DNA of 32,105 bases. It comes from a virus (Duplodnaviria > Caudoviricetes). Positions 1-28,616 of this stretch are shown piece by piece (within the stretch, counting starts at the first letter, position 1; every line of letters starts with the position of its first letter). Where the stretch lies: positions 1-32,105 of IMG/VR virus record IMGVR_UViG_3300033516_000059; one strand, written 5' to 3'. The notes under the pieces are model-generated. The model searched no databases. It had not been told where the DNA came from and worked only from the letters and a program-made list of their open reading frames with translations. The position numbers and the translations under genes were made by a program.

Positions 1-1075
1 AATCCTCTTTTGAAATTTCACTTATAGAACCAGGAAGCAACTTAATGACTTCTGCATCATCAGATCCGAAAATTTCCCTGACAAGGAAATCAAATGCTCG
101 TTTAGAAAAATCATAAGTCGCATCTTTCTTTTGAAGTTGTGATTCAAGAACTTCTGTTGCTTTATTGATAGCTATCCAGTATTGTTCCTCAACGGCATCG
201 CTAAGTGCCTGTTTGTTATCTGGATTCGTATTACCATACATACGATCTTGTGCGGTCATCACATTTCTAATGTAATACATCAAATGATTTGGGTCTTGTG
301 CTTGCTTTTCAAAAGGCGCACCACGACCACGAATCATGTCCCAAATTTTATTGCTACCGGCTCCACCAACTGTAGGGAACGATGACATGCTCTCTAAGCC
401 TTTTATGAGGGGCAATCCAAAGAAATTTCCCATACGAAGAATAGCTGTGAATATACTCAACTGTGCTGTTTTCGACGTATCGGTTTTGATAGAGAAACGA
501 ACAGGAGCTTCGATATCTTCTGGAACAGGAGTATTCGACTTGGCTTCGACGCGGAGCATTACGTCGCCTTTGATTTCATCTTTTGAAGCTGATGTTTGCG
601 ATCCATCAGCAACTACATAGAATGTGATGTTATCTGGTGAGCGGTTAGTAAGTACCTTGATGATGAACGCCTCAATGCGCTTAACAGCTTTTGTTCCAGC
701 GATCTGCTTCGTCATTGTATCGATGGTAGATTCAATGTCTGGAATTGGTTTTGACGTAGGACCGAATGCGGTCTTGGTAGTAGCCTTCAAGTTGATAACG
801 ACTTTGACTGCCAGCTTATTACCCGGTTGAATATGCGGTAACTTGTTGGCGATCCAACCATCTGCTGCAAGGTTGGAATCAACCATTGTCTGAAATGGCT
901 CCTTCGGTTTGACGATAACACGCTTTCTAATTTCATTAAGCTTAGCAACGTCAATCTTTCCATCTGCAATGTACAAAGCAACAGCAATGGCAAATATGCC
1001 TTCCATAGCATCGCCAACGACTGACTCCGCTTCATCAATGAGCATTGCTTCGGTGAAAAAAGATTTGAATCCCAT
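1..1075 (-). CDS. Putative capsid-internal protein with possible PD-(D/E)xK nuclease-like fold; 3'-partial, missing from the ORF track
   Basis: Manual translation from ATG at 1075 (GGAG RBS upstream) gives MGFKSFFTEAMLIDEAESVVGDAMEGIFAIAVALY...KGDVMLRV...FSIKTD..., open to the window edge. The E...D...SxK spacing is restriction-endonuclease-like. The CDS is well supported; the function is inference. Confidence 0.8.
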   Translation of the reverse strand, partial: MGFKSFFTEAMLIDEAESVVGDAMEGIFAIAVALYIADGKIDVAKLNEIRKRVIVKPKEPFQTMVDSNLAADGWIANKLPHIQPGNKLAVKVVINLKATTKTAFGPTSKPIPDIESTIDTMTKQIAGTKAVKRIEAFIIKVLTNRSPDNITFYVVADGSQTSASKDEIKGDVMLRVEAKSNTPVPEDIEAPVRFSIKTDTSKTAQLSIFTAILRMGNFFGLPLIKGLESMSSFPTVGGAGSNKIWDMIRGRGAPFEKQAQDPNHLMYYIRNVMTAQDRMYGNTNPDNKQALSDAVEEQYWIAINKATEVLESQLQKKDATYDFSKRAFDFLVREIFGSDDAEVIKLLPGSISEISKED

Positions 1076-1106: not shown

Positions 1107-1367
1107 TTACTTCTTCTTTCCACAACCGCATCCCCCACGTCTTGGTGCCTGCTTCGGTATAGGATTCTGCGATGGCTGCGAAAGCGGTTGGGGTGGCGTA
1201 GGAATCGGTGTCGGCGTCGGTGGTTGTGGTGGCTGTGGCTTCGGTATATTTGGTGGTATGTATGCTGGTGGCTGTACCGGAGGTTGTGTGCTTGGTGGTG
1301 TTTGAATTGGCGACGGAACAGTTGGGTCTACTGGTTTCCCGTTCCGAAATCTCTTGATGAATGCCAT
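1107..1367 (-). CDS. Small Pro/Gln/Thr-rich protein with a C-terminal GGCGCGKKK motif
   Basis: 86-aa ORF tightly coupled to the upstream gene (TAATAATG); low-complexity Pro-rich core. Confidence 0.7.
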   Translation of the reverse strand: MAFIKRFRNGKPVDPTVPSPIQTPPSTQPPVQPPAYIPPNIPKPQPPQPPTPTPIPTPPQPLSQPSQNPIPKQAPRRGGCGCGKKK

Positions 1368-1369
1368 TA

Positions 1370-4300
1370 TTATCCTTCGAAGATGTTTCTGAGTTTATAT
1401 CTAAGTTCATCGATTGACTCATATACTGCTTCCTTTGCTATTGGTTGTGGATCAGATGTGCCACCAAGTACGGCATATGCTTGTTTATATCCAGAACTTG
1501 CATCGGATGATCCGATATACTTCTCAGGGCATACTTCCTTGAACCAGTGTTGGAAGTCTAATTTTGATGCTAACATACGTGCCAACGTTCCACTCATCTG
1601 CGCGACTGGAATAACTGGAGTCTCTGATGTTTTGGCTTTTGCAGCTAACATTTCATCTTTAGTTGCTTTTTCGGCGGCAGCAGCCGCTTTGCCAGCTTTG
1701 TCGCGTGGTTTTGGTGCTTTGTCACCGGCTTCTCTACCCACGTCGATAAAAATGATATCATCTTCAATAGGATATGCATTTCCTGGGGATGTCTTTTGTT
1801 CGTATTCTGCTTTGTACTTATCGGTCTTAAATGCATCGAATTGTGCCTTATATCCGGCTATACGGTCGCTTCCTGCGAGCCAACCCTTAACTATAATACC
1901 TTGTTTTGACGCAACTACAAGTATATCAACAATGGAACCGGTGGGGACCGGCAAACTACTAACATCTACTTTCTCTTCATTTGCATATACTGCGCCAATT
2001 AACTCAGCCTGTGTATTGAAATCCATTGGATTCTTATTCTTGTCATCTGCCGTTCCTGCGCCCTTAACCAACATTACGAATACCATATCGGCACCAACTT
2101 CGCTGAGCTTAGAAAGTCCCTGTTGAATTAATGTGTCGTGTCCCTTATGCCATGGTTGTGCGCGACCAACCCATACAATTGCACGTTTTCCACGTGCTTG
2201 GTGTTCTGGTGCCGAGTCTGGTGTTACATCGGGTGTCGGTGGCGCGATATCGACAGAAGCTTCTGCATCGTCATTTATCTCTGGTTCTTTGGGGTCCATA
2301 ATCCATCTTCCTTTTTCGTCTATGAATGTGTAGCCAAGCTTCTTCATTAACTTTCTGATATGCTTGGATCGAAGAATATACTTACCTTTTTGGTCGCGTT
2401 CATAAGCTTTTGGATAACCAAGCTTTGATAATGTGTTACGTGCCATCTTAACCTTTTCGAACTTACGCTCGTCAAGAATCTCATTCTCTTCAAACTCTTC
2501 GGCTGCCTCTTCCCAAAGCTCATCTGTATGACCATGTACATAATCAAGTGCGCGATCAACGTTACGCTGGCGTTCCTTCTCGGGATCTTCTTCATGACCC
2601 TGTGCCATCGCACGTATGTCATTAACATCAAGCTTAAAATGCTTAGTAATCTTTGGAAGAATTTTCTCTGGATTACTATCATAAGCTTGCATGATTCTTT
2701 TTATCTCAACTTCTGGGATATTCTTATCGGCAAGTTTCTGTGAGATGAAGTTCCTAACAGTGACAGGAAGCCACTTTGGGTCTTGATCTGGAAGGTTGTC
2801 GTGAAGTGGGTCGCTTGCTCTTGATGAAGGCTGAGCGTGTGGTGGTTCTGAAGGAAGGTCATCATCGATGTCGCGCATACTAGACGGATCTTGCTTCTTT
2901 GACATCATCTGTTTGACTCTTGACAAAATATTTGATACGTCAAGTTCATCAAGCCCAGCATCTTCCAACTTATCATAATAGTCTGGATCATCACCAGCTA
3001 GATGATCCTTTGTTATTTCCCCAGCAATCGCTGGATCATTTGTATGTTCCTTTTCATCATCTATACCTTTATTGTATTGTGTCCTAATCTGACTAACTGG
3101 AACTTCCTGTTTTTTTGCTATGTCGGCTAGTGACATATTATCTGCTTGCCCACCATGAATCTTATCCGTCAACTCGTCAATTTCTCCGACTGAAGGCTCG
3201 CTGTTAATGAATCCTTCAATGCGGCGACCAATAAGCATACGAAGTAAGTAAACCATGTACGCATCGCCAGAATATTTGGCATCAACAACTCTATCTTGGA
3301 GTTTGTTAAGCATTTCTTTAGTATACTTCATCTGATTTTCAGTCTTATCGACTGTATCTGGGTCTACTTGTGTCTTTGTTTGTTCCCACTTCTTTTCTAT
3401 GTCAGAAAGTTGAGTGGTAGCGGCTTTCATATATGCTTGCGCCTTATCACGCGAAGCATTGGCGTCACCAGCAGCGCCACCCACAATGAGCTTTTTACGA
3501 AGCTCGTTAGTGAACTCGTTAATCAACTCTTCGCCTTGTTTGTCGCTATGAAACTCCTTACCAACTTCCGCAATAGCTCTATTCAAAGCTGCTGGTTGAT
3601 CAGTACGTAGACCAATTACGTCCTTAAGGAACTGACCAGTTAATGTTTTTTCAATCGCACCAAGCTCCTTACGAGTACCCCATGTGCCAGCGGCAATGTC
3701 GTGGAATATCTGCGAGGTTCCCTTGATGAATGTAGGACCATCTGGAAGGTTGACCTTCAAAACAACGCCTTCGATTGGCGACTTACCTGTTTCATTACCG
3801 AGACTTGAAGAAGTCTTTTCAGCATATGCGTCAAGCTGCTTTTGAAGCCCAGGACGAATCTTTGCAATGAGATCCTTGATTGCTTTAGAGTTTGGATCAT
3901 TTTTCTTGCGGAGTAACGAAATGGATTGTGCCAGTTTTTCTGGACTTGAAATCCAATCATTGATACCAGTGAAGTCAAATTGAAGGTTGCCGTTGAGTTT
4001 ACCATCACGTTCTATATAGAAACACTTCCACTCCGTATCGTCTGTTGAACGAATGATATCAAGAAGCATGTCTTTGATATCTTCGTTTGGTTCAACCCAT
4101 GAATCGCCTTCTTTGACTTTAACATCAAAGATCATGAACGCACCCATATTACCAAGCTTACTCTTGTTATACTTGGTTGAGCAGAAAATAAAGTCGCCGC
4201 AATCATCTCCTTTGTGGGTTAGGACAGGGAACATCTCGGAAATAAATTTGACGGGAGCGCCTGCATAATCGGCAGCCTTCTTGAGACGTTCTTGGAATGG

Positions 4301-4636
4301 ACCATAATCGGCAAGGAACTTAAATGCTTTATAAAAGTGAACTGTGTACGGGTTGTTTAATTTCTCAATGTTACTATTAGTTACTTCGCCCGAGTTTGCC
4401 GATTCCATAAACCATTCTGGGTTGTGTCCCCAATTGGCTGGGGAACCGTCAAACTTCTCTGACATGGAAACCTTGTCATTTGTGTTTAGATCAATAGATC
4501 CATCAGCAGCCACCTGTTGAAGCTGGTGAAGAAACGTGAGAAGTTGTGAATCTGACATTTCATTCGATCCAGAGAATCTCTGAATGGACATCTTCTTTTC
4601 ATAAACCATACTCTCGTAGAAGTTACTAAATGACAT
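1370..4636 (-). CDS. Multidomain protein: ATP-dependent RNA-ligase-like domain, DUF5661-like domain, and HIGH-family (cytidylyltransferase/NMNAT-like) nucleotidyltransferase
   Basis: Ligase motifs SEKFDGS (I), EMF (III), FMIFDV (IIIa), EGVVLK (IV), FIK (V). Middle segment KGIDDEKEHTND..AGEITKDHL..DPDYYDKL. C-terminal VGRAQPWHKGH, KNPMDF, AGSDR and MSGTLAR. Confidence 0.8.
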   Translation of the reverse strand: MSFSNFYESMVYEKKMSIQRFSGSNEMSDSQLLTFLHQLQQVAADGSIDLNTNDKVSMSEKFDGSPANWGHNPEWFMESANSGEVTNSNIEKLNNPYTVHFYKAFKFLADYGPFQERLKKAADYAGAPVKFISEMFPVLTHKGDDCGDFIFCSTKYNKSKLGNMGAFMIFDVKVKEGDSWVEPNEDIKDMLLDIIRSTDDTEWKCFYIERDGKLNGNLQFDFTGINDWISSPEKLAQSISLLRKKNDPNSKAIKDLIAKIRPGLQKQLDAYAEKTSSSLGNETGKSPIEGVVLKVNLPDGPTFIKGTSQIFHDIAAGTWGTRKELGAIEKTLTGQFLKDVIGLRTDQPAALNRAIAEVGKEFHSDKQGEELINEFTNELRKKLIVGGAAGDANASRDKAQAYMKAATTQLSDIEKKWEQTKTQVDPDTVDKTENQMKYTKEMLNKLQDRVVDAKYSGDAYMVYLLRMLIGRRIEGFINSEPSVGEIDELTDKIHGGQADNMSLADIAKKQEVPVSQIRTQYNKGIDDEKEHTNDPAIAGEITKDHLAGDDPDYYDKLEDAGLDELDVSNILSRVKQMMSKKQDPSSMRDIDDDLPSEPPHAQPSSRASDPLHDNLPDQDPKWLPVTVRNFISQKLADKNIPEVEIKRIMQAYDSNPEKILPKITKHFKLDVNDIRAMAQGHEEDPEKERQRNVDRALDYVHGHTDELWEEAAEEFEENEILDERKFEKVKMARNTLSKLGYPKAYERDQKGKYILRSKHIRKLMKKLGYTFIDEKGRWIMDPKEPEINDDAEASVDIAPPTPDVTPDSAPEHQARGKRAIVWVGRAQPWHKGHDTLIQQGLSKLSEVGADMVFVMLVKGAGTADDKNKNPMDFNTQAELIGAVYANEEKVDVSSLPVPTGSIVDILVVASKQGIIVKGWLAGSDRIAGYKAQFDAFKTDKYKAEYEQKTSPGNAYPIEDDIIFIDVGREAGDKAPKPRDKAGKAAAAAEKATKDEMLAAKAKTSETPVIPVAQMSGTLARMLASKLDFQHWFKEVCPEKYIGSSDASSGYKQAYAVLGGTSDPQPIAKEAVYESIDELRYKLRNIFEG

Positions 4637-4637
4637 G

Positions 4638-5723
4638 TTACCCCTTAATCGCTTTTTGTATATCGGCAGGCGGAACTCCGAGTTGTGTACCTAATACCTG
4701 AAATACGTTCGTAGCTTCTTTCTCACCTATTCTACCATCTACGATTGCAAACTTTGTTTTATCTACGAGCATGTTCCAAATTGACTGGGTACGATCTGGA
4801 TGCTTCTGTTTCATAAACTGAGCCATCTTGACAGCACTAAACATATCTTCCTTTGTAACCGAATCGTCTTGAAGAATTACTTGGGCAAGCTTATCAAGAT
4901 CCTCTGATGTGACACGTTGCTTGTCCTCAAGGTCAAGAGTTTTGCGTCCCTTAACCCCGTCCTTTTCCATATCGACAACAACACGAAGCCCTTTTGGACC
5001 AAGTAGGAATCTTCCCATATTAACAAGACGGTATCCTTTAGATGTCCATTTTTGAATTTCTTGATGGTTCTTGATAATTTCAGCTAACTTGAATTTATCT
5101 TCTTGGTCAAATGGAAGGGTTTGTACAATACATGCGATGAATAGTTTATGAGTAAACCCCTTGATGTTCTCTGCTGTATCGGCATAACTACTGGATTGAT
5201 CAAATTCCCAATTCTGTCTGTTCACTGCAACGTCAACGATGTCTATTTGTATGACTTTATCTCCTACTTTAGCAGCTACGTTGGCTTCTTTACCAGCGTC
5301 CTTTACTGCCATACGAGATGGATCAATTTTAGAAATGACCGACACAACATCTTTCATTGTTTTTTCAGGAAGCAGTTCAATGTCGATGTCTAAGTCTCCG
5401 AAGTCCTGCTTTGCCATAGTGGCTTTAGCAACCGTTGAAGGATCTTCATGTGCTAACCGAGATACTGGCTTCCCGGCTATATCGGCAGCTAGACGAGTTG
5501 ATCCAAGCGAATACTTCGGTTGATATGAAGGAGATATGAGCTTGTTCTTTTTAAGGACATCAAGAATCTCAACAACAGTCGTATCAAAAACTGTTCCTAG
5601 ATCCTTCTGGGATATCTTAGTGTACGTAAGTGGCTTATCGGAGGATGGTTGAAGCTGCGGAATAAGCTTCTCCGCAGCATTACCACCCTCTAATAGCAAC
5701 TTACGTATCTGAACAAGCTTCAT
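4638..5723 (-). CDS. Pol-beta-superfamily nucleotidyltransferase, probably virion-associated
   Basis: Catalytic signature LGST...FGDLDIDI...IQIDIV; N-terminal LLLE-GGNA. Confidence 0.7.
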   Translation of the reverse strand: MKLVQIRKLLLEGGNAAEKLIPQLQPSSDKPLTYTKISQKDLGTVFDTTVVEILDVLKKNKLISPSYQPKYSLGSTRLAADIAGKPVSRLAHEDPSTVAKATMAKQDFGDLDIDIELLPEKTMKDVVSVISKIDPSRMAVKDAGKEANVAAKVGDKVIQIDIVDVAVNRQNWEFDQSSSYADTAENIKGFTHKLFIACIVQTLPFDQEDKFKLAEIIKNHQEIQKWTSKGYRLVNMGRFLLGPKGLRVVVDMEKDGVKGRKTLDLEDKQRVTSEDLDKLAQVILQDDSVTKEDMFSAVKMAQFMKQKHPDRTQSIWNMLVDKTKFAIVDGRIGEKEATNVFQVLGTQLGVPPADIQKAIKG

Positions 5724-5726: not shown

Positions 5727-6389
5727 TTAAGCCTTCGCGTCCGTGTACACCCCACGGTTCCATTCGTCAGTATTCTTGTCGAATGTTGGTTCGCCGTTGG
5801 GCATAGTGGTATTTGGCTTAGCAGTTGCGCGGCGTTCGCGTAATGTAGCATTTGGGTCAAATGAAGCATCATTTGTATTAGGCGACCCTGTTCCCTGACG
5901 CACACGTGGAGTAGCTGGTCCAAGCGTCTGTTCTGGGTTGAACGCCTTCTTCTTATTTTGAACAGCCTTTTGAATAAGTTCCTTACCACCACCTATACTA
6001 GCGGCTGATTTTCCCTGTGATGGCTTAAGTGTAAATAACTCAAATACAAGTTTACCGTCCACTTCCTTGAAGATACCTTTTGGCTTGATAAGATGCTTCT
6101 TACCAGACTTCATACGAATGCAATGGAACTTGCCTTCTGTGGCGCGGAATAGACCATAACGGGCACCATTACGAGCCTCTAGAACATAAGCTGGGCTGTT
6201 GCCATTACCATCCTCTTCCATTTTACAAACCTTGAACTTCTTGGGTTTACCGTCGTGGTCTTTGTATTCAAGTAACGATGTTGCATCTTCTTTGAACTTA
6301 CCCCACCAACGGGACTCGTTAATGGTCTTGAAATTTGCTTTAAACTCGGATTCGGTAAGATGTGTACTGAAAAAGTGTTTGAACGACAT
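5727..6389 (-). CDS. Hypothetical protein, probably capsid-internal
   Basis: 220 aa, AGGAG RBS, first gene after a late promoter; N-terminus MSFKHFFSTHLTE. Confidence 0.75.
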   Translation of the reverse strand: MSFKHFFSTHLTESEFKANFKTINESRWWGKFKEDATSLLEYKDHDGKPKKFKVCKMEEDGNGNSPAYVLEARNGARYGLFRATEGKFHCIRMKSGKKHLIKPKGIFKEVDGKLVFELFTLKPSQGKSAASIGGGKELIQKAVQNKKKAFNPEQTLGPATPRVRQGTGSPNTNDASFDPNATLRERRATAKPNTTMPNGEPTFDKNTDEWNRGVYTDAKA

Positions 6390-6420: not shown

Positions 6421-6428
6421 TATTTATA
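6421..6428 (-). promoter_or_regulatory. T4-type late promoter TATAAATA
   Basis: Exact TATAAATA(CT) about 30 nt upstream of the ATG at 6389. Confidence 0.75.
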
Positions 6429-6477: not shown

Positions 6478-7299
6478 ATGGATACCATATTTATTCAACC
6501 TATTTTCGCACCGGACAAAAAGAGATTCGATAGAAACTGGGAATCGTTAACAAGTTTTTTAAAATATAGCACAAAGTATAACTATGATGTTAAGTTTGCC
6601 ACAGGTGGCTGGTGTACTGACGAATATTGGACGGAATTTACCAAGTTGATCAATGACTCATATCCAGCAAACAAAATCACATTGATGCGGTTCGACAAGA
6701 ACTATGGTAAAGCTGCCGTTGTCAATGCGATTCATGCTAAAGTCAAAGAAAAGAACGTACCACATAAGTACATTTTAACATGTGACTCGGACATCCTCTT
6801 TCCAGAGGATACAACGAACCTTATTGAGAGACTTGAACAGGTTGCGGTTGAGTCGCCTAAATACACTAAGAAGCCATTCGGTATGGTTTCGTTAAATCAG
6901 CTAGGCGCTAACTGCCACTGGAAGGTGTGTTACGAAAACCAATATAAGTACACCAATAGCTTCGGTGGTCAAGAGAATATTGTTTACCCAACAAACCCTA
7001 GTGGAATCGCTGGTGGTTGTTTGTTCATTTCCAAGGAGTGCTGGGAAGCTGTCGGTGGGTATAGACAGCTTGGTGTTTATGCTGGTGATGATGCATACTT
7101 CCTGTTAGACACACACCACAAATGGTTTAGTTATCAGATGTCAGACACAATTGGTATAATTCACCCAACCGAAGATGATAAAGAATATGCGGAATGGAAG
7201 CTTAGAGTTTGCCAACGAGACTCTCATGGTGTTTCTAAGCGCGAAAACATAGATGCTATTGTAAACGAGGCGGAAGCCTTCTGGAAAAACAGAAAATGA
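6478..7299 (+). CDS. Glycosyltransferase, GT-A fold (GT2-like)
   Basis: NYGKAAVVN, DxD motif LTCDSDILF, GGCLFISKECWEAVGGY...YAGDD; AGGAG RBS. Confidence 0.85.
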   Translation: MDTIFIQPIFAPDKKRFDRNWESLTSFLKYSTKYNYDVKFATGGWCTDEYWTEFTKLINDSYPANKITLMRFDKNYGKAAVVNAIHAKVKEKNVPHKYILTCDSDILFPEDTTNLIERLEQVAVESPKYTKKPFGMVSLNQLGANCHWKVCYENQYKYTNSFGGQENIVYPTNPSGIAGGCLFISKECWEAVGGYRQLGVYAGDDAYFLLDTHHKWFSYQMSDTIGIIHPTEDDKEYAEWKLRVCQRDSHGVSKRENIDAIVNEAEAFWKNRK

Positions 7300-8033
7300 C
7301 CCCTATTAAAGTAACATATTTCGATGCTTTGCCAAATTACGGTTCTGCATTAAACGAGTGGTTTCTTAAAAACGTTGCGAAAGTTCCTTTTGAGAAATGC
7401 AAGGATCAACATAGTGAAGATCACTATGTTCTATTTGGTTCAATTTTACACTGTACAACCAAACATAGTACAGTTTGGGGTAGCGGGTTGATAAGCCCAG
7501 AGTATGGAATAGATGACAACGCAAATATCTTATGTGTGAGAGGTCCGATAAGTAAGAAATACTCTAAAAAGGATGTTCCTATTGGTGACCCGACGTTGTT
7601 ACTTCCTCTATATTTCAAGAATACGTTTGATAAGAAGTATGCCGTATCAATATGTCCACACTACGTTGACTATGGGTACGTACTAGCCAATAACCCTAGA
7701 AATTACCATGTTATTAATATGCTAGATCCTGTTGAAAAAGTAACACAAGAAATACTTGAAAGTAATGTGGTTTTCTCAAGTAGCTTAAGTAGCATAATCG
7801 TGTCAGATGCATATGGTATACCAAATTCTTGGGTGGGTACACAGAATGAAGTATGTGGTAGGGATTTTAAATTCACTGACTATATGGCATCTGTTAATAG
7901 ACCGGCACGTAAATACTTATACGATAATGTTTCTTCTGGAGCAATTAAACCATCAACGTGTTCAAGGTCTATATTAAAAACACTTCAAAACAATTTGATT
8001 TCTACTTGCCCATTTGAAATTGGTGGTAGATGA
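7296..8033 (+). CDS. Polysaccharide pyruvyltransferase (ExoV-like)
   Basis: GSIL, VWGSG, VRGP, GDPTLLLP, PHY, SDAYGIP and FKFxDY motifs; ATGA overlap with the previous gene. Confidence 0.8.
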   Translation: MTPIKVTYFDALPNYGSALNEWFLKNVAKVPFEKCKDQHSEDHYVLFGSILHCTTKHSTVWGSGLISPEYGIDDNANILCVRGPISKKYSKKDVPIGDPTLLLPLYFKNTFDKKYAVSICPHYVDYGYVLANNPRNYHVINMLDPVEKVTQEILESNVVFSSSLSSIIVSDAYGIPNSWVGTQNEVCGRDFKFTDYMASVNRPARKYLYDNVSSGAIKPSTCSRSILKTLQNNLISTCPFEIGGR

Positions 8034-8656
8034 AAGTTTGTATTATAGGTAATAGTAACAGAATATTAGAAGGTGAATTTGGTGAGTTTATCGACTCATG
8101 TGATGTTGTTATACGAATGAATAGATTTAGTGTCGATGAAAGGCTGTCTAAGCACGTTGGGAAAAAGATAAGTATTATTTCCATACGTGCTACTGGGGAG
8201 GGTGTGTCTAAGGAACTTGCAGACCATATACCAAAAAAATATTTCGATGAATGTAATGAAATATGGATACCTGTTATATAGGAATTTTATACAATTCCAT
8301 TAAAAAATAGGTTTTTTGATTTGCGTAAAGATGTGAGTATAGAAAAGGCTAGATTTGCAACCAAGAGCGAGTATCACTGTATTGTAAATAATGTTATAAC
8401 TGAATCAGATAGTGTTATTGCATCGGCATGGAATGAGAATTTTCTAACAACTGGCTATCTTACGATAGAACTAGCAATAACGCGATACCCAGGTGCCAGT
8501 ATCTATATAGTAGGGGTTGATCCACTACAGAAAAGAAATTATACACATTACTGGCTACCAGAAATTATCCCCAAACATGGTCATTTAGACCTTGAAGCTA
8601 AAATGTTACTCAAGAGAATTAAAGATGGAAAAGTTATTTCTCTAATGGAAATTTAA
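8030..8656 (+). pseudogene. GT29/sialyltransferase-like gene interrupted by one in-frame TAG at 8279-8281 (pseudogene, readthrough or sequence error)
   Basis: ORFs 8030-8281 and 8321-8656 share a frame with only one TAG between them. Sialylmotif-L-like CIIGNS..GEFIDSCDVVIRMN precedes the stop. S-like TTGYLTI..YIVGVD and HYW..H..E follow it. Confidence 0.7.
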
Positions 8657-9507
8657 TATTTGTACTTTGGATGGGCGTCCATCCATACCTTCAAGTCTTT
8701 TAGCATGTTTTCAAATGACTTGACAGTAAAATCAAAGTCGGCTCTTGTGTTTATAACTGACTTATCACATCCGTTTGGTGCAAATGTCTCTTCAATCTCA
8801 GTAGACTTGTTAAAGACCTTTGCAATCAGCTTTAGAAGAGTGTATTTTGAAAGTTTATCATTGTTGGTCAGATGATAAAGACCAGTGAGATTCTGGTCGA
8901 TAGCAGAATCGATTGCCCTGGCTAATTCTAATGTTGTGACGCCATTCCATATCAAGTTAACGAAACCATTTACTTTTTTGTCTTGTGTCATAAACCAGTG
9001 GAACAAACCAGTTCCGTTATACAACTCTGGTCCAATAATTGACATTCTAAAAGTCAAATCCTTACTGTTGTTTATTTCACCAAGAGCCTTACTGCGTCCA
9101 TAGAAATTTGTCTCGGTAGGAAGATCGGTTTCTTTGTAACTTTTCCCCTGAAGCCCGTTGAAAATACAATCTGTACTCAGATGAATAACCTTAGTCTTAC
9201 GAGTAGAATAAATCTTCTCAAGGAACTTTGGAAAGAAACTATTGATCATTATTGCTTTCGGATTGTCCTCGTTAGAATTCTTAACAAGCAGCCCTACGCA
9301 ATTTATAACGACATCGGCTTCCGAGTCTAAATTATGGGCAAACGCATTCAACTGAATAAAATCTTGAACGTTTATAATAAGACTCTTGTCATTCAGCTTG
9401 TTCTTATTACACACAGTGACGATATCATACTTACCAGTTTCCTGTAAGTAGTCGTACACAATATGACCAGCCATTCCTGATGCGCCGAAGATGATTACTT
9501 TTTTCAT
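8653..9507 (-). CDS. RmlD-like NDP-4-keto-6-deoxy-sugar reductase (QnlA/WbvR-type)
   Basis: SDR motifs GASGMAG, INCVG, STDCIFNG, YGRSKALGE. Confidence 0.85.
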   Translation of the reverse strand: MKKVIIFGASGMAGHIVYDYLQETGKYDIVTVCNKNKLNDKSLIINVQDFIQLNAFAHNLDSEADVVINCVGLLVKNSNEDNPKAIMINSFFPKFLEKIYSTRKTKVIHLSTDCIFNGLQGKSYKETDLPTETNFYGRSKALGEINNSKDLTFRMSIIGPELYNGTGLFHWFMTQDKKVNGFVNLIWNGVTTLELARAIDSAIDQNLTGLYHLTNNDKLSKYTLLKLIAKVFNKSTEIEETFAPNGCDKSVINTRADFDFTVKSFENMLKDLKVWMDAHPKYKY

Positions 9508-10370
9508 AATATTCCTTCTCTATTATACATGTAGATGTCGCGTTGTCCGTGGTACTTTAACCCATTGATATTAAACCACTCATTAAGTTCCTTTTCGTAG
9601 AACTTATAAACGCCCGGACCTCCCATTGGACAGTCTGAATGTGGTACATGTGATGGTTTGATATATTGATTGAATTTCTTGGCAGAAATTGACACATACC
9701 CCTGTAAAGAAACGATACGGTGGAAGTCTACTTCAAACATGTATATACTGTAATCCCCAAATGGGAACTTATCAAAGAATGTTTCTGAGCAATTCTTCAA
9801 GAAGTTTTCGACAATTGGATATTTGATAACGTACATGGTTCCCATAGGAAACCACTCAACCGGGGTGAAGTTAAACTTCATATACTTTTGAATATGATTT
9901 CCATTTATCGAATGTACTTTTGGTACGACATAGTTACATACGGATGATGTGAAGTTTGATGACCCTACAATATCATTTTGGTAGTATTTCCAATATGATT
10001 CTCGTTCGTGGAGAAGGAAATTATAGTGGGCACGTCTAACATCATGCCTGCCGCTTTTAGTACCCTGTGTATGAAAGAACCAGACATTCTTATATTTGCT
10101 GTCTAAATTTTCTCTGAAAAGTTTCAATCCAGATTGGTAAGCAGAAGCATCCGACATAACTGCCTTTTCTGGAGGCGTGTCGATGAACTTCGCACCATAC
10201 TGTGTGAGAAGAGCTTTCCATTCAGTAGAAGCTCCACATGGATTAATACCAGCGAAAATATCAGCGTCGGGTAGGTAATGCCTGATGATATCTAATACTT
10301 CTTTACCTATCCATAATTTATCTACGGAAGGTATATGTGATGCTAGTATTACAGCATCTTCCGTCATCAT
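9504..10370 (-). CDS. Hypothetical protein, possibly a glycan transferase
   Basis: 288-aa ORF coupled by ATGA overlaps on both sides within the glycan operon; WFFHTQG resembles the HTKG motif of some putative glycosyltransferases (weak). Confidence 0.6.
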   Translation of the reverse strand: MMTEDAVILASHIPSVDKLWIGKEVLDIIRHYLPDADIFAGINPCGASTEWKALLTQYGAKFIDTPPEKAVMSDASAYQSGLKLFRENLDSKYKNVWFFHTQGTKSGRHDVRRAHYNFLLHERESYWKYYQNDIVGSSNFTSSVCNYVVPKVHSINGNHIQKYMKFNFTPVEWFPMGTMYVIKYPIVENFLKNCSETFFDKFPFGDYSIYMFEVDFHRIVSLQGYVSISAKKFNQYIKPSHVPHSDCPMGGPGVYKFYEKELNEWFNINGLKYHGQRDIYMYNREGIL

Positions 10371-11365
10371 ATAAATCCACCATTCTTTAACATGATCTTG
10401 ATTTCTTCCTTGCTCATGATTTTCGTTCTTGATGAGAACTCAACGAAGTCTACCTTCGGGAACTTGCTCTTGATATCGACGTAGTGTTGCTCGCTGTCAT
10501 TAATGGCAAGTGTTGGAAGTATGACGAAATACGAAGAGTCAAATACGTATGCGTTAACCGCTTCGTGCTTCGATACAAGTACCTCGTCAAGCTTCTCGCC
10601 TGGGCGCATACCAATCTCAATAATAGGAACTGTCACGCCAGCATCTTCAATAAGTACCTCTGCAAGCTCCTTGATGTAGCATGCTGGCATGTTCATTACA
10701 AAGGTTTCGCCACCAGCAGAGAACTCCGCAGCCTTAAATAGTAAATTAATAGCTTCATCAAGGGTCAAGAAGTATCGTGTCATTTGGAAATCTGTAATTT
10801 TCACGGTTCCACTCTTTATTTGATCTTTAAAGAATGGGATAACACTTCCATTACTTCCCATAACATTTCCACCACGAATACATACAAACCTAGTATGGTC
10901 TGAAATATTATTTGCTTGTATAATGAGCTTCTCGCCGGTCGCCTTTGTCATTCCATACAGGTTCAGTGGTTCTACAGCTTTATCAGTAGATACATCTATT
11001 ACTTTCTTGACTTTATTCTGAATAGCGGCATTGATTATATTAATGGTTCCTTGAATATTGGTCTTTACTGCTTCCTGTGGGTGATCTTCACATACGGGTA
11101 CGTGTTTAAGAGCAGCAAGATGGAAAATGTAATCAACCCCAACACATGCACTTTTTATAGTTTCAAAATCTCTAATGTCACCGATAACATATTTTATTTT
11201 TTTAGCATATTTTTCAAACTTGCGAGCCATGAGAACTTGTTGGAGTTCTCCTCGTGAGTAGATGATAACCTCTTTCGGATTATAAGATTCAAAAAGGTGT
11301 GTCGTAAGAGTCTGTCCCCACGATCCAGTTCCACCAGTGATTAAAACGCGAGCGTTATTAAACAT
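10367..11365 (-). CDS. UDP-GlcNAc 4,6-dehydratase (FnlA/CapE/PseB family)
   Basis: TGGTGSWG, HLAALKHVP, STDKAVEP, YGMTK, GNVMGSNGSVIP, RPGEKLDE. Confidence 0.9.
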   Translation of the reverse strand: MFNNARVLITGGTGSWGQTLTTHLFESYNPKEVIIYSRGELQQVLMARKFEKYAKKIKYVIGDIRDFETIKSACVGVDYIFHLAALKHVPVCEDHPQEAVKTNIQGTINIINAAIQNKVKKVIDVSTDKAVEPLNLYGMTKATGEKLIIQANNISDHTRFVCIRGGNVMGSNGSVIPFFKDQIKSGTVKITDFQMTRYFLTLDEAINLLFKAAEFSAGGETFVMNMPACYIKELAEVLIEDAGVTVPIIEIGMRPGEKLDEVLVSKHEAVNAYVFDSSYFVILPTLAINDSEQHYVDIKSKFPKVDFVEFSSRTKIMSKEEIKIMLKNGGFI

Positions 11366-12450
11366 TAATTTTCTCCTAAGATATATTGTATCACATTATC
11401 TGCCACACTTTCATCACAATATCCTGTAGGACGTGCCCACAAAGACTTGCGCCTACGCATGATGTTGTAGCATGATAATATGTTTGCCGAGTCGAGTCCA
11501 GAAACTATATTAGATCCACATTTGACTGTTTCGGGGCGTTCGGTAGTCTCTCTGATAGTTACGGCAGGAACATGGAAGATGCAGGCTTCTTCTTGACACG
11601 TTCCACTATCCGTTATCACCATACTAGCGTTCTTCTCAAGCTTAATGAAATCAAAGAATCCAAACGGGTCACAGATATCAATTGCTGGGTGTGAAGTATC
11701 AATATCAAATCTCTGCAACATGTTCAGTGTGCGTGGGTGGCAACTAAAAATTACAGGAGAAACATCAGCTATCATTTTAAGCGCATGGAAAATGTTAGCT
11801 AGTCTGGATGGGTTATCTACGTTTTCGGCTCGGTGTGAAGTAACTAACGTGTAGCCGCGTCTAGTCAACTTTTTAGTTTCTAAAATTGTGCTAAGTTCGA
11901 CTGTATCTTTGTAATATTCCAAAACTTCATATATTGGGTTACCGCATTCGAAAATCTTGGTAGCGGGAAGTCCTTCATTAAGTAGGTTCTCTCGGCTTCC
12001 TGGTGTGTATGGTAAGTTGTACGAAGAAATATGATCAATAACCTTACGGTTCTTCTCTTCTGGAACCTTGAGGTCATAACAACGGTTGCCTGCCTCCATA
12101 TGAAATACAGGAACTCCCATCTTCTCACATATGACTGCCATAAGACCCGAGTTAGTGTCTCCAAGTATCAAAACAGCATCAGGAAGGAACTCTTTAATTA
12201 CCTTTTCAACTCCTTCCATCATAACACCAAGCTGCTTTGCTAGCGACACACCCTTTACGTCAAGGATAATGTCTGGTGTTCTAAGACCCATATCCTTGAA
12301 GAAAATATCGTTCAACTTTGGATCATAATTCTGACCAGTATGAAGTACCTTATGGTTACATAGGTCATCAAGCTTCTTCATTATGAGCGAGAGTCTGATG
12401 ATTTCTGGTCTTGTACCGAGTATGGTTAGGATTTTCTTATTACTGATCAT
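11365..12450 (-). CDS. Non-hydrolysing UDP-HexNAc 2-epimerase (FnlC/QnlB/WbjD type)
   Basis: GTRPEIIR, HTGQNYD, GDTNS, HMEAGNRC, PEEKNR, TDSGT, TERPE. Confidence 0.9.
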   Translation of the reverse strand: MISNKKILTILGTRPEIIRLSLIMKKLDDLCNHKVLHTGQNYDPKLNDIFFKDMGLRTPDIILDVKGVSLAKQLGVMMEGVEKVIKEFLPDAVLILGDTNSGLMAVICEKMGVPVFHMEAGNRCYDLKVPEEKNRKVIDHISSYNLPYTPGSRENLLNEGLPATKIFECGNPIYEVLEYYKDTVELSTILETKKLTRRGYTLVTSHRAENVDNPSRLANIFHALKMIADVSPVIFSCHPRTLNMLQRFDIDTSHPAIDICDPFGFFDFIKLEKNASMVITDSGTCQEEACIFHVPAVTIRETTERPETVKCGSNIVSGLDSANILSCYNIMRRRKSLWARPTGYCDESVADNVIQYILGEN

Positions 12451-13199
12451 TTGTTGGTTTCTATGATGTTTGTTTTTAAAGTGTAGTCATGGAATAAAGC
12501 TTTGTTATCCTGCTTTATTTTTGACGTATCGATCTTACTGCCGTAGTGGAATTGATGGACCACATATGGAGACTTGATAAAGGAAATACCAAGACCCATT
12601 CTCTGAATTCTAACCAGAATCTCGTTATCATCCCAACCATGACCGTTGGCATACTTCTGATCAAATCCGCCAAGTCTATCAAGGTTCTTTCGTGTTATGC
12701 ATGATGTGAAATGGTAGCCGACTGGACGATATTCAGGATGATTGTACCATCCACTATCACCATCTGAAGAAACCGATTTATTTTGTATTACAAACTTATT
12801 GTTTTTCTGCAACTCTTCTGTTTCTGTTTTGTTAAGTGAATAGCACGCGAATGTTAAGTAGTTTTTATTGTTAACGTATTGTACGCATGCGCTAAGAACA
12901 TCACCAACATGACAACATTCTGGATTTTGGATAACAATTATATCGCCTTTAGCTTCTTTGAATCCAATGTTAAATGGGACACATGGATTGGCATAATTCT
13001 TTTCAACAACTTTGTCAGCCATCCTAATTATTTTTATAAATGGGTAGTCTTTTTGTAATATAAGTAACTTATCGTAATCATCGCTGAAATCATCTACGAC
13101 AATCATTTCAAAGTCTTTTACGACGGTTTGATGCATGCACCGCAAAGTGTATGCTAACTGAGAAACTCTATTATGGTATGCCGTGACTATTGATATCAT
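12447..13199 (-). CDS. Glycosyltransferase, GT2/GT7-like
   Basis: ISIVTAYHNR, IVVDDFS, NIGFKEAKGD, GGFDQKYANGHGWDDNE, HQFH. Confidence 0.85.
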   Translation of the reverse strand: MISIVTAYHNRVSQLAYTLRCMHQTVVKDFEMIVVDDFSDDYDKLLILQKDYPFIKIIRMADKVVEKNYANPCVPFNIGFKEAKGDIIVIQNPECCHVGDVLSACVQYVNNKNYLTFACYSLNKTETEELQKNNKFVIQNKSVSSDGDSGWYNHPEYRPVGYHFTSCITRKNLDRLGGFDQKYANGHGWDDNEILVRIQRMGLGISFIKSPYVVHQFHYGSKIDTSKIKQDNKALFHDYTLKTNIIETNK

Positions 13200-13278
13200 A
13201 TGTATAATTATTATACTTCATCTATATAATATACAACAGTCAAAAGTATTCGGTATTCTCATATTAATGTTTATCATT

Positions 13279-14022
13279 TTAATCTTCCTTTTCGCCTTCT
13301 TTAAAATGATAAACAATTGAGTCCATTGCGGTGAAATGATTTACGCCTATATCTTTAAGTTTATCGTAAAATTTCTCGTCTCCATATCTGATTATATGAG
13401 CAAAAGATGACCCTGCTATATTTCCTTCTGGGTAGTATCCAGCCTTTTCTACTAAATCTTTATAAATCATACATGGCATATAACCGCCACCAGCGACAAT
13501 TCCGTTAGCTGATATCATTTTTGCGAAAGCAAGGAACATGCCTTCATTAAAATTTCTCGGGTGATTACCAAACTCACCCCTTTTAGCTTTTGGGAAAACT
13601 CCGAATCTTGGATGCATGCGCTCGACAAGTTGCGAACATACTATTTTTGTTCTATCCAATTTATTCAACATATTCTCAAGCCAATTCGGAGAGAACATGT
13701 TGTCGCTATTTATTAACACAACAATATCTCCTGTACATGCCTTTATTCCTGCATTATATCCTTTATAAACTCTACTAATATATTCGGGAGTACCGTAACC
13801 CGATGCAAATAATTCACTATCTGTTAACACTTTATTATTATTGATAATATACTTATATTTGTTGTTTTTTAGAAATTCAATGACCTGTGGTGTTGCGTCA
13901 TTAGCGACAAACAATAATTCAGCAGAACCATTTGATATCATGGGGGTGTATTTCATTACCGAGTCATATACCGCCTGGGCAAATGCAGTAGATTTGTATA
14001 TTAGACAAATAATGCTAATCAT
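13279..14022 (-). CDS. Glycosyltransferase, GT2-like
   Basis: FVANDA, YNAGIKACTGDIVVLINSDNMF, GDE and VYH motifs. Confidence 0.8.
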   Translation of the reverse strand: MISIICLIYKSTAFAQAVYDSVMKYTPMISNGSAELLFVANDATPQVIEFLKNNKYKYIINNNKVLTDSELFASGYGTPEYISRVYKGYNAGIKACTGDIVVLINSDNMFSPNWLENMLNKLDRTKIVCSQLVERMHPRFGVFPKAKRGEFGNHPRNFNEGMFLAFAKMISANGIVAGGGYMPCMIYKDLVEKAGYYPEGNIAGSSFAHIIRYGDEKFYDKLKDIGVNHFTAMDSIVYHFKEGEKED

Positions 14023-14540
14023 TATAATCCTTTATATGATAGAACTCTTCTATCATTTTTTCTTTTCATAATAGTTAATCCCATCACATCGATTGGTAGG
14101 GTTATAGATTCATATTCAGGAAGATCCCTTATTACTTCTACTATTCTATATGCGCTGCCGCACCATGTGTTGCCGATTTCGTCAATTAATTCTTTACTAT
14201 TTGGGTCTGTATCATGTAATAGTATTATTCCATTTTTATTAAGAACTTTGATGGAATTGTAAAGGTCTTTTTTCACTTGTTCAATTTGATGTGATGCATC
14301 TATAAAAATATAATCAAATGATTTTAAGTTTGTCTTAAAAAAATCATCAGTTGTACACGTATGAAAAATACATCTATTTTTATTTTTTCTGTTATCAACC
14401 ACATCAACGCCAACACAATTATTTGATATTTGTGATATGAGGTCCATTAACTCACCCACATGTACTCCCAATTCAAGATATGAGAACCCTTGATGTGAAG
14501 TAGATTTAATAAAATCAAATATAAAGTTCTTATATGACAT
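14022..14540 (-). CDS. Class I SAM-dependent methyltransferase (Methyltransf_24-like)
   Basis: YLELGVHVG, GVD, FDYIFIDASH, GIILLHD. Confidence 0.85.
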   Translation of the reverse strand: MSYKNFIFDFIKSTSHQGFSYLELGVHVGELMDLISQISNNCVGVDVVDNRKNKNRCIFHTCTTDDFFKTNLKSFDYIFIDASHQIEQVKKDLYNSIKVLNKNGIILLHDTDPNSKELIDEIGNTWCGSAYRIVEVIRDLPEYESITLPIDVMGLTIMKRKNDRRVLSYKGL

Positions 14541-15384
14541 GCTGTGCGTTATTCTTTTTAATTATACTGTCAATGTACGATAACCAAGTTTTCTTTGCTG
14601 TTTCTCTATCCCATCCTAATTCAATAACTTGATCGCGGGGGTTTTCCGAAGGAGTAAAATCCTTTTGGATATTGTCAAGGATGATAAAATTCAGATTTGA
14701 AGCCAGTGCTTCCCATTCCATCATGTAGAACGGTCGCAACCTGCTTGTTGATAAGAAAAAGTCTGCACAATTAAAAAGTTCATTCATCTGCTCTTGTGGT
14801 ACTTGTATGTAATTAAAGCATCCTGCGACTTCGGATGCTTCCTGTTTCCATTTCCACAAAATTATCCATACTATATCTGGATTATCCTGTTTATATTTCA
14901 AAAACTTGTCATGACCTTTCATTGTGTGGGTAGTGCCACCCCATACCCCAACTCTCTTATCTAATGGAATCCCGTACTTCTTTCGCAGGGCATCTTTAGA
15001 GTTTAATGGTTTAAATAAATTGGTATTTACGCCTATAGGTAAAACATTCAGTTTACTACACATATGCTCATAGTAAGGTATCATTATCTTACTTGATAGT
15101 ACATGGTGTTCGGCAGATTTAATTGCAGAGTTGATTGTTGTCATTCTAAAGTCCCATGTGTTACTTTTCAACATCTCTTTCATCTCTGGATATAGTTCCC
15201 ACAATAAGCATATAGTATGTTTTGGGTTCGTGTGTCCGTTGGCGGTGGAATACCGCAAAACAACATCATTATTAGTTGTTGTTTCGCCTCTATAGAATTT
15301 TGAGTCGGGTATTTCCCGTTTAAACCATGTCCAAAATGTATCTTCACCCAATCCACTTGCTACTTCTGGTGCCAAATAAATCAT
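14530..15384 (-). CDS. Glycosyltransferase, GT-B fold (GT4-like)
   Basis: PIGVNTNLFKP, KGHD, ELFNCADFFLSTS...EWEALAS. Confidence 0.8.
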   Translation of the reverse strand: MIYLAPEVASGLGEDTFWTWFKREIPDSKFYRGETTTNNDVVLRYSTANGHTNPKHTICLLWELYPEMKEMLKSNTWDFRMTTINSAIKSAEHHVLSSKIMIPYYEHMCSKLNVLPIGVNTNLFKPLNSKDALRKKYGIPLDKRVGVWGGTTHTMKGHDKFLKYKQDNPDIVWIILWKWKQEASEVAGCFNYIQVPQEQMNELFNCADFFLSTSRLRPFYMMEWEALASNLNFIILDNIQKDFTPSENPRDQVIELGWDRETAKKTWLSYIDSIIKKNNAQHVI

Positions 15385-26555: not shown

Positions 26556-27806
26556 TTACTGATTTATCTTCTGTTCAAGTTGTGTAATGCAATTAACCTG
26601 ATAGCTTGTATCCGTGAATTTATTAACATTAAAGTTAATAGGTGACTTAACATGGGTAACGTTTTTACCTCCTGTTTTTAAAAATAGCTCCTCTAACGTC
26701 ATTGGATCGCCAAAGAATCCTATTTCCTTAATGTCATTATCATCATCAATGAACTCTATAATCTTCTCGGCTAGTGCTGTAACTTCTGTGGGGAAAATAT
26801 ATTGTGCTTTGTCAACCATAAGAACATCCCCAGTCTTTGCTTTATCCTTTAGCTTGCTAACGATATTATGTACGTCATGCTGGTTAAGAGAAAACAAGTT
26901 GGCTACGCGAATAACCCTTGCATCTGTGTTTACCAACGCATCTTCCATTTTCTTTTTAGATGTTGTGTAAACAGAGTTATCATTTTCTCTAAATACATAG
27001 TCTGAACTGATTTGATAAAACTTTGCTCCGATTCTTTTGGCATGTATTGCCAACGACTCTGGTAATCTCACGTTGCACCAATCAACTTCACATGTAAATG
27101 TTAATAGCTTTTGAACATTTGTCAAACCGGCGCAGTTAATAATCCTTATATTATTTGAATGACATATAAGAGGGGTTGTTTTGGTAAGCTCTGTAATTAA
27201 CTTTTCGATATCGGCTTCACAATTCAGCTTGTCATACATAGGAATAACATGGTATTTATGGTAACCCATGTTCTTATAAAGGTGATCTGTAATAGCTTTA
27301 CCAAGTCGCCCACCAGCACCTAAAACAACATATGTGAGAATATCATCACCAATCTTTTCTTCATGGCGAATCTCGTCAATTGGAGACTTCTTATTTTCAC
27401 CCATGAATAAAGAAGTTGGAAAGTTTAATGTTTTAACACTAGTTAACTCTAGATTTCTATATGAATGAATTATTCCTACATTAACTGTAACATTTGTTAT
27501 TTTATTACTATCCGTTACAAAATATTTCATTTCGTTTGTTTTTGGATTATACATCTGATATACCATTTTAGACTTCCATGTTATAAACTCGTCCCGCTGA
27601 GATGTATGTTCGTGTGGACCACGCATAATAAGTGGTTTAGTTTCGCTTATGTAACACATTTTAGAGTCATTGTTTATATCAGAATCTACTCTAAATACTT
27701 CGCTAACCATTCCCCTATCATCGGCGTATTCTTTCATCTCTCTTATAATAACTTTTCCGTCCCACCAATTTTGAACCTCGGTATAGTTAATTGTTTTTGT
27801 GAACAT
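26556..27806 (-). CDS. RmlC-RmlD fusion (dTDP-4-dehydrorhamnose 3,5-epimerase plus reductase)
   Basis: Cupin motifs DDRGMVSE, RGPH and HSY, followed by SDR motifs GAGGRLG, INCAGLTNV, ISSDYVF and YTTSK. Start placed at ATG 27806. Confidence 0.82.
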   Translation of the reverse strand: MFTKTINYTEVQNWWDGKVIIREMKEYADDRGMVSEVFRVDSDINNDSKMCYISETKPLIMRGPHEHTSQRDEFITWKSKMVYQMYNPKTNEMKYFVTDSNKITNVTVNVGIIHSYRNLELTSVKTLNFPTSLFMGENKKSPIDEIRHEEKIGDDILTYVVLGAGGRLGKAITDHLYKNMGYHKYHVIPMYDKLNCEADIEKLITELTKTTPLICHSNNIRIINCAGLTNVQKLLTFTCEVDWCNVRLPESLAIHAKRIGAKFYQISSDYVFRENDNSVYTTSKKKMEDALVNTDARVIRVANLFSLNQHDVHNIVSKLKDKAKTGDVLMVDKAQYIFPTEVTALAEKIIEFIDDDNDIKEIGFFGDPMTLEELFLKTGGKNVTHVKSPINFNVNKFTDTSYQVNCITQLEQKINQ

Positions 27807-27820
27807 GTGGACCTTTCTTA

Positions 27821-27828
27821 TATAAATA
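27821..27828 (+). promoter_or_regulatory. T4-type late promoter TATAAATA
   Basis: Exact match 20 nt upstream of the ATG at 27849. Confidence 0.65.
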
Positions 27829-27848
27829 AAGTATAATAGTATTATAAC

Positions 27849-28616
27849 ATGAAAAACAACTACACACAATATTACGTTTACGTTTACCTTGATCCTACTT
27901 TACCTGGGATATTTAAATATGGTAATTTTTCTTTTAATTACAAACCTTTTTATATAGGTAAAGGTAAAAATAGGAGAATGTATAATCATTTACAACCAAA
28001 ATACCTTTCTAAAAAGTGTTTAAAATCAGAATATATAAATTCTCTGTTAGATAAAAATAAATTACCTATCATTGAAAAAATTAAGGATAATTTAAGTTCA
28101 CGAAATGCTTATGAATTTGAAACAGAGATGTTAAAATTAATTGGTCAAATAAATAAAGGAACTGGACCTCTTACAAATAATATGTGCAAAGGAAGAGGAC
28201 TTGATTCACATTCCCAAGAGACAAAAGATATAATAGGTAAATATTCAAGAAATAGGAGACATACATTAGAAACAAAAAGAAAATTAAGTTTTTATAAAAA
28301 AGGTAAAAATAATCCAATGTATAAAAATGGTAAATATGCTGGAATTATTAAAACTGGATTATCGCGTTCGGAGGCTAAATTGGGTGTAAGAAATCCTATG
28401 TATGGAAAAAAATTAACCAAAGATCAAAAATATGAACGTTCTATAAATTCAACTAGAAGAAAAACATATGAGATAATATACTCAGATGGTAAAATTGAAG
28501 TATTTCATGGGTTATTAGAATACTGTAGGAAACATAATATAGAGTCAAAGATGTTAAGGCGTGTTATTACTGGTGAAAGAAAACATTATAAGGGTATGAA
28601 AATTAGAGAGATATAA
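27849..28616 (+). CDS. Free-standing GIY-YIG homing endonuclease (paralog of 23950-24822)
   Basis: YVYVYLDP..FYIGKGKNRRMYNH..FE..GPLTN; NUMOD3-like HSQETK, HTLETKRKLS and NPMYGKK. Confidence 0.85.
   Translation: MKNNYTQYYVYVYLDPTLPGIFKYGNFSFNYKPFYIGKGKNRRMYNHLQPKYLSKKCLKSEYINSLLDKNKLPIIEKIKDNLSSRNAYEFETEMLKLIGQINKGTGPLTNNMCKGRGLDSHSQETKDIIGKYSRNRRHTLETKRKLSFYKKGKNNPMYKNGKYAGIIKTGLSRSEAKLGVRNPMYGKKLTKDQKYERSINSTRRKTYEIIYSDGKIEVFHGLLEYCRKHNIESKMLRRVITGERKHYKGMKIREI

Follow-up and report, generated by a model that had tools for sequence, protein, structure and literature searches.

IMG/VR record IMGVR_UViG_3300033516_000059 (hereafter the window, meaning the whole 32,105-nucleotide stretch analysed) is a 32-kb fragment of a large T4-like phage, about 14 per cent complete by estimate. 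Its T4-like genes include gp32, a helicase, the clamp and its loader, a primase, RegA, and thymidylate synthase. A first-pass annotation, made from the sequence alone, singled out two adjacent minus-strand genes as carrying three unrelated nucleotidyl-transfer chemistries, and the Pol-beta, ligase, and HIGH motifs on which that reading stood are all present. The upstream gene (4638–5723) encodes a Pol-beta-superfamily nucleotidyltransferase, here called Pol, with a predicted palm and a Pol X-like C-terminal (thumb) domain. One nucleotide separates it from the second gene (1370–4636), whose 1088-residue product combines a ligase-type covalent nucleotidyltransferase domain (residues 15–474, 3215–4594; Lys61 codon 4454–4456), a DUF5661 insert (residues 505–559, 2960–3124), and a Rossmann nucleotidyltransferase domain of the HIGH superfamily that is NadM-like in its N-terminal half (residues 818–1058, 1463–2185). 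The operon extends beyond this pair and comprises five closely spaced minus-strand open reading frames (ORFs), at 5727–6389, 4638–5723, 1370–4636, 1107–1367, and 2–1075. As judged by sequence comparison, the three nucleotidyltransferase domains are one conserved phage module in which domain order varies.

Patterns built from the close ligase family identified 77 ligase loci, duplicate contigs included. Pol is fused or adjacent to the ligase in sixty-nine of these, a linkage of the kind that RlaP shows with RNA ligases. A profile found the HIGH domain in 67 of the 77; nine of the ten misses are truncated or interrupted close to the end of a contig, and the profile overlooked the tenth (L030). 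Thirty loci encode a single Pol-Lig-HIGH chain, twelve a single HIGH-Pol-Lig chain, and seventeen share the layout of the window. Searching 1.84 billion representatives with a ligase profile gave 232 matches at E 1e-3. Among 141 new representatives at 50 per cent identity, the arrangements were Pol-Lig-HIGH (11), HIGH-Pol-Lig (2), Lig-HIGH (24), HIGH-Lig (6), Pol-Lig (6), Lig-Pol (1), and ligase only (91, with neighbouring genes outside the data).

The module is also present in cultured Stenotrophomonas, Xanthomonas, and Vibrio phages. In Ps15 and X1, genes for Pol, a nuclease-like protein, the ligase, and HIGH stand in a row, and Va1 carries Pol, a ligase-HIGH gene, and a nuclease-like gene. 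Iterated profiles connect the ligases of Ps15 and X1 (E 4e-13 and 2e-18) and all four Pol proteins; the ligase part of Va1 was identified by motif only. The X1 Pol matches 39 phage records. A scan of 185,579 prokaryote genomes, made with two patterns only, found no relative.

The assignment of the gene pair to a late operon held up. A T4-type late promoter, TATAAATA, lies at 6421–6428 on the minus strand, 32 nucleotides before the first gene of the operon, and the motif stands 8–39 nucleotides before an ORF start in all nine non-redundant loci with separate Pol and ligase-HIGH genes. All six copies in the window point to a start 18–224 nucleotides away. Six copies are no significant excess over the 2.83 expected (6 of 100 shuffles), so the argument comes from position, not count. 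Of the thirty-five non-redundant loci with 2.5 kb of upstream DNA, fourteen have the motif there, compared with 123 of 732 background windows.

T4 gp21 cleaves after L/I-X-E, and propeptides of 10–19 residues direct proteins to the head (PMC9026906). Leaders with [ILV]xE at residues 12–15 occur in four of the five operon proteins: they end in L-T-E13 in the first, 220-residue protein, in L-L-E12 (followed by Gly-Gly) in Pol, in V-Y-E13 in the ligase-HIGH protein, and in I-D-E15 in the nuclease-like protein. Six of the thirty-three other window genes have such a motif in residues 7–18. Where the domains are fused, 55 of 57 close sequences carry [IL]xE ahead of an internal ligase (background 12 per cent), and all 25 with an internal Pol carry it ahead of that domain. 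At the ligase–HIGH junction it was found in none of 47, which suggests that these two domains are coupled. The 50-per-cent-identity representatives have the motif at 21 of 29 internal junctions and in 44 of the 68 that have a leader (background 18 per cent); a further 27 are leaderless and 15 were not anchored. Pol itself begins with GG, AG, or SG after [ILVM]xE in 89 of the 103 sequences that have the DxD motif (eight without the DxD pattern were set aside), directly after Met in seven, and otherwise in seven. Cleavage and direct initiation would thus appear to yield the same mature Pol end. The internal sites could alternatively be a relic of gene fusion.

A late promoter followed by a leader ending in L/I-x-E is the combination found in head-packaged T4 proteins such as Alt and IPI–III, whose leaders of 12–15 residues end in L/I/V-x-E as here. 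The enzymes are unrelated to those proteins, however, and the internal sites of the module would split a polyprotein. We consider it likely, from these sequence features, that the module proteins are packaged in the head of this phage. The suggestion of capsid-targeting-like N-termini is supported, though three cultured relatives have no leader on Pol.

Lys61 of the ligase domain sits in a KFDG motif. Over 234 distinct aligned stretches, counting only rows with a residue at the position, conservation is 98 per cent for K61, 100 per cent for D63, 98 per cent for E134, 71 per cent for F167, 98 per cent for E289, and 92 per cent for K305. Structure prediction by domain, as the first pass had recommended, gave a Pol-beta fold for Pol and an Rnl2-like fold for the ligase. 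In the AlphaFold2 model of the ligase (predicted local distance difference test, pLDDT, 90.6) the best structural match is T4 Rnl2 (E 3.7e-6), and Rnl1, NgrRnl, TbREL1, and archaeal Rnl3 also rank before DNA ligases (best 5.2e-3). TbREL1 aligns over 205 residues with Z 10.0 and a root-mean-square deviation (rmsd) of 4.2. Motifs I, III, IIIa, IV, and V on this fold place the domain among the ligase and capping covalent nucleotidyltransferases.

Its place within that group is less conventional. ATP-dependent DNA ligases have an oligonucleotide-binding (OB) domain after motif V, whereas the model has only helices there and no OB domain. The Rnl2 family has two lysines in motif V; the second is absent here, position 307 being T, I, V, or Q. 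That family also has a signature C-terminal domain; residues from about 310 to 475 of the window protein are helical but match generic bundles. T4 Rnl2 and kinetoplastid REL1 share with the window ligase motifs I, III, IIIa, IV, and V, a helical C-terminal domain, and the lack of an OB fold, at an identity of 11–14 per cent and with a window motif V of the form K-G/I/V-T-S that has one lysine; the likeness of the C-terminal bundles is one of shape. Rnl5 enzymes have an N-terminal domain and no C-terminal appendage (PMC4408790), whereas the window ligase begins directly with the nucleotidyltransferase domain and continues into a helical C-terminal part. Pfam RNA_ligase matched 15 of 64 distant relatives scanned and not the window protein itself. 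Atlas features linked the ligase to clusters containing DUF6267 (0.93), which is a lead only; DUF6267 (PF19782) is not among the families listed for the module proteins in profile scans. A 462-kb phage (LR756500.1; L080, 3282–6540) has, by motif, two adjacent ligase-like genes, the second fused to HIGH; these ligase parts lie beyond the reach of the ligase profile.

The catalytic residues of Pol (G74-S75, D110-x-D112, and D161) are invariant in 24 of 24 close homologues, and the three aspartates are invariant across a wider set (n = 36). Foldseek matches of its AlphaFold2 model (pLDDT 90.7) are Pol-beta-superfamily entries, none reaching E 1e-3 (best 2.3e-3). The GS and DxD motifs and third aspartate on a Pol-beta fold nonetheless identify a member of that superfamily. 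In a wide structure comparison, the rows that span Pol residues 3–298 at an rmsd of 4–4.7 are family X polymerases: Pol mu (Z 8.3, 182 aligned), Pol beta (7.8), terminal deoxynucleotidyltransferase (TdT; 7.1), and the Pol X of African swine fever virus (ASFV; Z 6.8, rmsd 4.0, 159 of 176 residues aligned). The long family X alignments range from Z 6.1 to 8.3, with terminal uridylyltransferases (TUTases) tied; TUTase and CD-NTase rows come within about 1 Z of family X, yet cover the head only or have an rmsd of 7–10. PDB sequence-profile searches with Pol and with the ligase gave nothing significant. There are two Pol subfamilies, whose profiles align weakly (E 0.011) but which an iterated search unites. 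On the predicted model, Pol looks like a minimal Pol X by shape and is not a member of that family by profile.

A close analogue is ASFV Pol X (174 residues), likewise a minimal palm with a C-terminal domain. Pol from the window has twice that length and carries insertions and a helical tail, and its partner is RNA-ligase-like instead of a DNA ligase. The CCA-type analogy of the first pass is weaker: the profile of CCA-adding enzymes (PolyA_pol head) matched none of 28 Pol sequences, and neither did that of RlaP (PF10127). RlaP, a Pol-beta nucleotidyltransferase beside phage RNA ligases, resembles the present arrangement and is predicted to restore lost nucleotides (PMC7824862); the window module differs in its Pol X-like C-terminal domain, in its ligase family, and in its HIGH partner.

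The HIGH domain has the motifs H830-K-G-H833 and S1015-G-T-L-A-R and matches PHROG 3041 (E 2.3e-10). Its closest PDB sequences are nicotinamide mononucleotide (NMN) adenylyltransferases (NMNATs) of the NadM type (E about 1e-3), with which it shares the GRxQPxHxGH, NP, and SGTxxR motifs, including the ATP-binding HxGH and SxTxxR elements. A match to NF003786 (NMNAT; E 1.6e-7) scores 31 bits against a cut-off of 397 and covers only residues 8–89 of the domain. The likeness stops after the first third: there is no full-length match including the NMN-binding part, and no Nudix domain. The proposed NMNAT analogy is the weaker for this. In the HIGH-Pol-Lig clade the HxGH motif is degenerate (GPHH). 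The domain also matches both PHROGs (395 and 3041) of the cyanomyovirus ‘cytidylyltransferase’. A protein of that name was found in S-CREM2 virions by three peptides, for which the authors allow contamination, and has been linked to NMNAT (PMC10665884); it may belong to this module.

DUF5661 (E 4.5e-10) is surrounded by [ILV]xE sites at residues 485, 488, 564, 709, and 723. It is one of several inserts found between ligase and HIGH and is present in just 7 of 41 aligned proteins. It is a clade-specific passenger outside the core of the module, and so drops out of the system in which the first pass had counted it. A second, small basic insert (residues 723–785, window about 2280–2470, minus strand) follows L-D-E and is kept in loci L001 and L002 and in P0029; it has no family match.

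We tentatively favour, at somewhat less than even confidence, a fill-and-seal role for the module at breaks with 3′-OH and 5′-phosphate ends, DNA being the slightly preferred substrate. After late transcription from the TATAAATA promoter, the proteins would be loaded into the head, be divided into units there by the prohead protease, and travel with the DNA into the host cell. Removal of the leader at L/I-x-E would uncover the N-terminal Gly-Gly of Pol, which would extend the 3′-OH of a gap by a few nucleotides, probably ribonucleotides. The Rnl2/Rnl5-like ligase would then adenylate Lys61 and seal the nick, while the HIGH domain would in some way serve the nucleotide turnover of the ligase. 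The slightly favoured target would be phage DNA that enters the cell and is cut by metal-dependent nucleases of the host; duplex RNA fits the same chemistry. ORFs, motifs, promoter, linkage, and enrichment of cleavage motifs are observed here and the folds predicted; packaging, cleavage, activity, and substrate we infer.

Several precedents support the chemistry. Ligases of this fold need a 5′-phosphate and a 3′-OH, other ends being handled by kinases and phosphoesterases (PMC7824862). NgrRnl, DraRnl, and T4 Rnl2 require RNA at the 3′-OH end and accept DNA on the 5′ side, and for T4 Rnl2 two ribonucleotides suffice (PMC4408790). DraRnl, the Rnl5 enzyme of Deinococcus, helps genome reassembly and DNA repair, and a ribo-patch laid down by a polymerase such as Pol X has been proposed (PMC5397189). 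A Pol X-like enzyme beside a ligase of this kind is consistent with that scheme, whether the substrate is DNA or duplex RNA. As in the DraRnl model, an RNA-ligase-fold nick sealer is here paired with a family X-like polymerase. The window partners differ in being linked or fused, phage-encoded, and accompanied by head-protease motifs and a HIGH domain, and the ligase differs from DraRnl in having no Rnl5 N-domain and in its helical C-terminal part.

A bolder picture, which we regard as unlikely, is that large T4-like phages inject a complete ribo-patch kit. The protease-exposed Gly-Gly would switch on the Pol X-like enzyme, ribonucleotides would be added to nuclease-cut phage DNA, the RNA-type ligase would reseal it before phage expression, and the tethered HIGH domain would recharge the ligase or clear its adenylate.

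A number of observations weigh against fill-and-seal by packaged enzymes. The Pol Z-scores are middling, with TUT7 and CutA within 1, and the Pfam Pol X palm and thumb profiles matched none of 28 Pol sequences (E <= 0.5). It is hard to place the HIGH domain in the path. Six loci have no adjacent Pol despite upstream DNA (L045, L069–L072, L076), and the Pol of Campylobacter phage CP220 has no recognisable ligase or HIGH gene among the ORFs read beside it. Layouts other than that of the window have TATAAATA within 2.5 kb in 5 of 26 cases, near background. The Pol proteins of Ps15, X1, and Va1 are leaderless, and the close sequences counted at the internal junctions are not independent of one another. 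The CP220 Pol does have a leader, yet by the masses and labels listed in a figure legend of PMC2853527 the 11 identified gel bands of that phage apparently do not include Pol; no mass spectrometry passage was found in the Ps15 and X1 papers. A predicted complex of ligase and Pol scored 0.01, which is evidence neither way. Two further points favour RNA as substrate: in P0119 a poly(A)/CCA-type head domain (PF01743) is joined to HIGH-ligase, and a CCA enzyme lies 3 kb upstream in Vibrio phage Va1.

These last points belong to an RNA-only repair model, in which ligase and Pol, much as RlaP does with RNA ligases, would mend host tRNA or other RNA after cleavage by defence nucleases. Among the structural matches RNA ligases rank above DNA ligases, some distant relatives match Pfam RNA_ligase, and RlaP and CCA enzymes act beside phage RNA ligases (PMC7824862). 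The C-terminal domain of Pol, being Pol X-like, points instead to a gapped duplex as substrate, and no Pol sequence matched RlaP. Among the first-pass suggestions were PrrC, RloC, and Cas13, whose cuts leave ends of the 2′,3′-cyclic-phosphate/5′-OH type. No kinase, phosphatase, or 2H enzyme was found among the 20 recurring neighbour families scanned; with no end-healing enzyme, ends of this type fit poorly and would not be handled by the module alone. That analogy is weakened, and the broader idea of RNA repair keeps its kinship with RNA ligases while DNA is an equally plausible substrate. We find RNA-only repair doubtful.

The nuclease-like gene bears on a further model, modification or attack: once injected, the enzymes would transfer nucleotides to proteins of the host or to RNA ends, or would synthesise a nucleotide signal, and the nuclease-like partner would have its part in takeover. 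This gene (2–1075, minus strand, truncated by the window end) has a PD-(D/E)xK-type E...GD...SxK motif, recognised by eye in 13 ORFs (7 distinct sequences), and no Pfam, PHROG, or NCBIfam match. Similar motifs adjoin the ligase in Ps15, X1, and Va1 and follow it in P0116, P0148, and P0163; a profile of the window family fails to reach the other candidates. In IME-SM1, a single 533-residue gene stands in place of two Ps15 genes, and PHROG 12709 spans both. Head-packaged modifying enzymes are common in myoviruses (PMC9503650), Pol-beta nucleotidyltransferases of injected polyvalent proteins are predicted protein modifiers (PMC5512222), and CD-NTases appear in the Pol fold list (Z up to 7.3, rmsd 7.6). 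All five ligase motifs are kept, however, the pairing of ligase with a Pol X-like enzyme has direct repair precedents, and the nuclease-like gene is absent next to single-chain forms. Such a role is improbable, a little more so than RNA-only repair.

For the HIGH domain, the first pass had raised the rescue of nicotinamide adenine dinucleotide (NAD), with an NMNAT rebuilding NAD+ against NAD-depleting defences and the module as a loose counter-defence bundle. The partial NMNAT matches and the S-CREM2 link speak for it. Against it stand the shortness of those matches, the separate NadV and NMNAT genes of Ps15 (PMC9025141), and the joining of HIGH to the ligase without a cleavage motif, and we judge this quite improbable. 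Activation of a sugar or polyol phosphate by HIGH for the adjoining glycosyltransferase cluster (6478–15384) is very improbable indeed. Genes for glycosyltransferases and nucleotide-sugar enzymes do border the operon, in the window and at several loci, but they belong to different operons or to the opposite strand. The module is found in different surroundings in Ps15, X1, and Va1, and fusions of HIGH with the ligase occur in either order.

The remaining operon genes add context. Residues 14–125 of the 220-residue protein (5727–6389, minus strand) form a small domain that is fused to the Pol N-terminus in relatives; the gene matches the N-terminal part of Pol proteins of 458–501 residues (phmmer E 6e-7 to 3e-4). 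It has no Pfam or PHROG match, and an Atlas search with the small domain gave no usable match. Between the ligase-HIGH and nuclease-like genes lies an 86-residue proline-rich ORF ending in GCGCGKKK (1107–1367, minus strand); an ORF in locus L002 (5644–5889) has the same place and ending, GCGCG(K/R)K.

Other loci show additional variation. In three related contigs (L038, L055, L077), breaks within the ligase part split the single-chain gene into several ORFs. An acidic 250-residue gene follows the single-chain form or is fused to it as a tail (L016, 12298–13059; marine loci), and an HExxH protein is encoded upstream in 33 loci. In Ps15 and X1 the module is followed by a small gene with a DGHHRW motif (L078, 6739–7092; L079, 7558–7998), which we take to be ParB/sulfiredoxin-like. 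P0119 and P0156 are HIGH-ligase proteins with long C-terminal extensions. Elsewhere in the window, glycosyltransferase, nucleotide-sugar epimerase, UDP-GlcNAc 2-epimerase, and methyltransferase genes form a large cluster (6478–15384 and 26556–29632) with an apparently split sialyltransferase-like (GT29) gene (8030–8656, plus strand; ORFs 8030–8281 and 8321–8656). Three GIY-YIG homing-endonuclease-like genes, at 17388, 23924, and 27821 on the plus strand, each have a TATAAATA late promoter upstream.

Literature searches found no description of the module; the supplements of PMC7824862 were outside their coverage, so a prior mention is possible. The module is real, and is a variant of known repair pairs, to which this locus adds a conserved late promoter, a convergent Gly-Gly start, an upstream domain fused in relatives, and cultured carriers. 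A class of function is thereby proposed for a module spread over many large phages and annotated as hypothetical or as ‘cytidyltransferase’, and the proposal can be tested in carriers that are in culture (Menderaviruses, Xanthomonas X1, Vibrio Va1). The module also bears on a question left open in PMC5397189, namely whether the repair targets of Rnl2/Rnl5-type ligases are DNA, RNA, or both. If true, packaging of such a kit would give phages a counter-defence of a new kind, and the kit could yield new polymerase and ligase tools; as an injected ribo-patch kit it would protect against restriction and CRISPR cuts independently of sequence.

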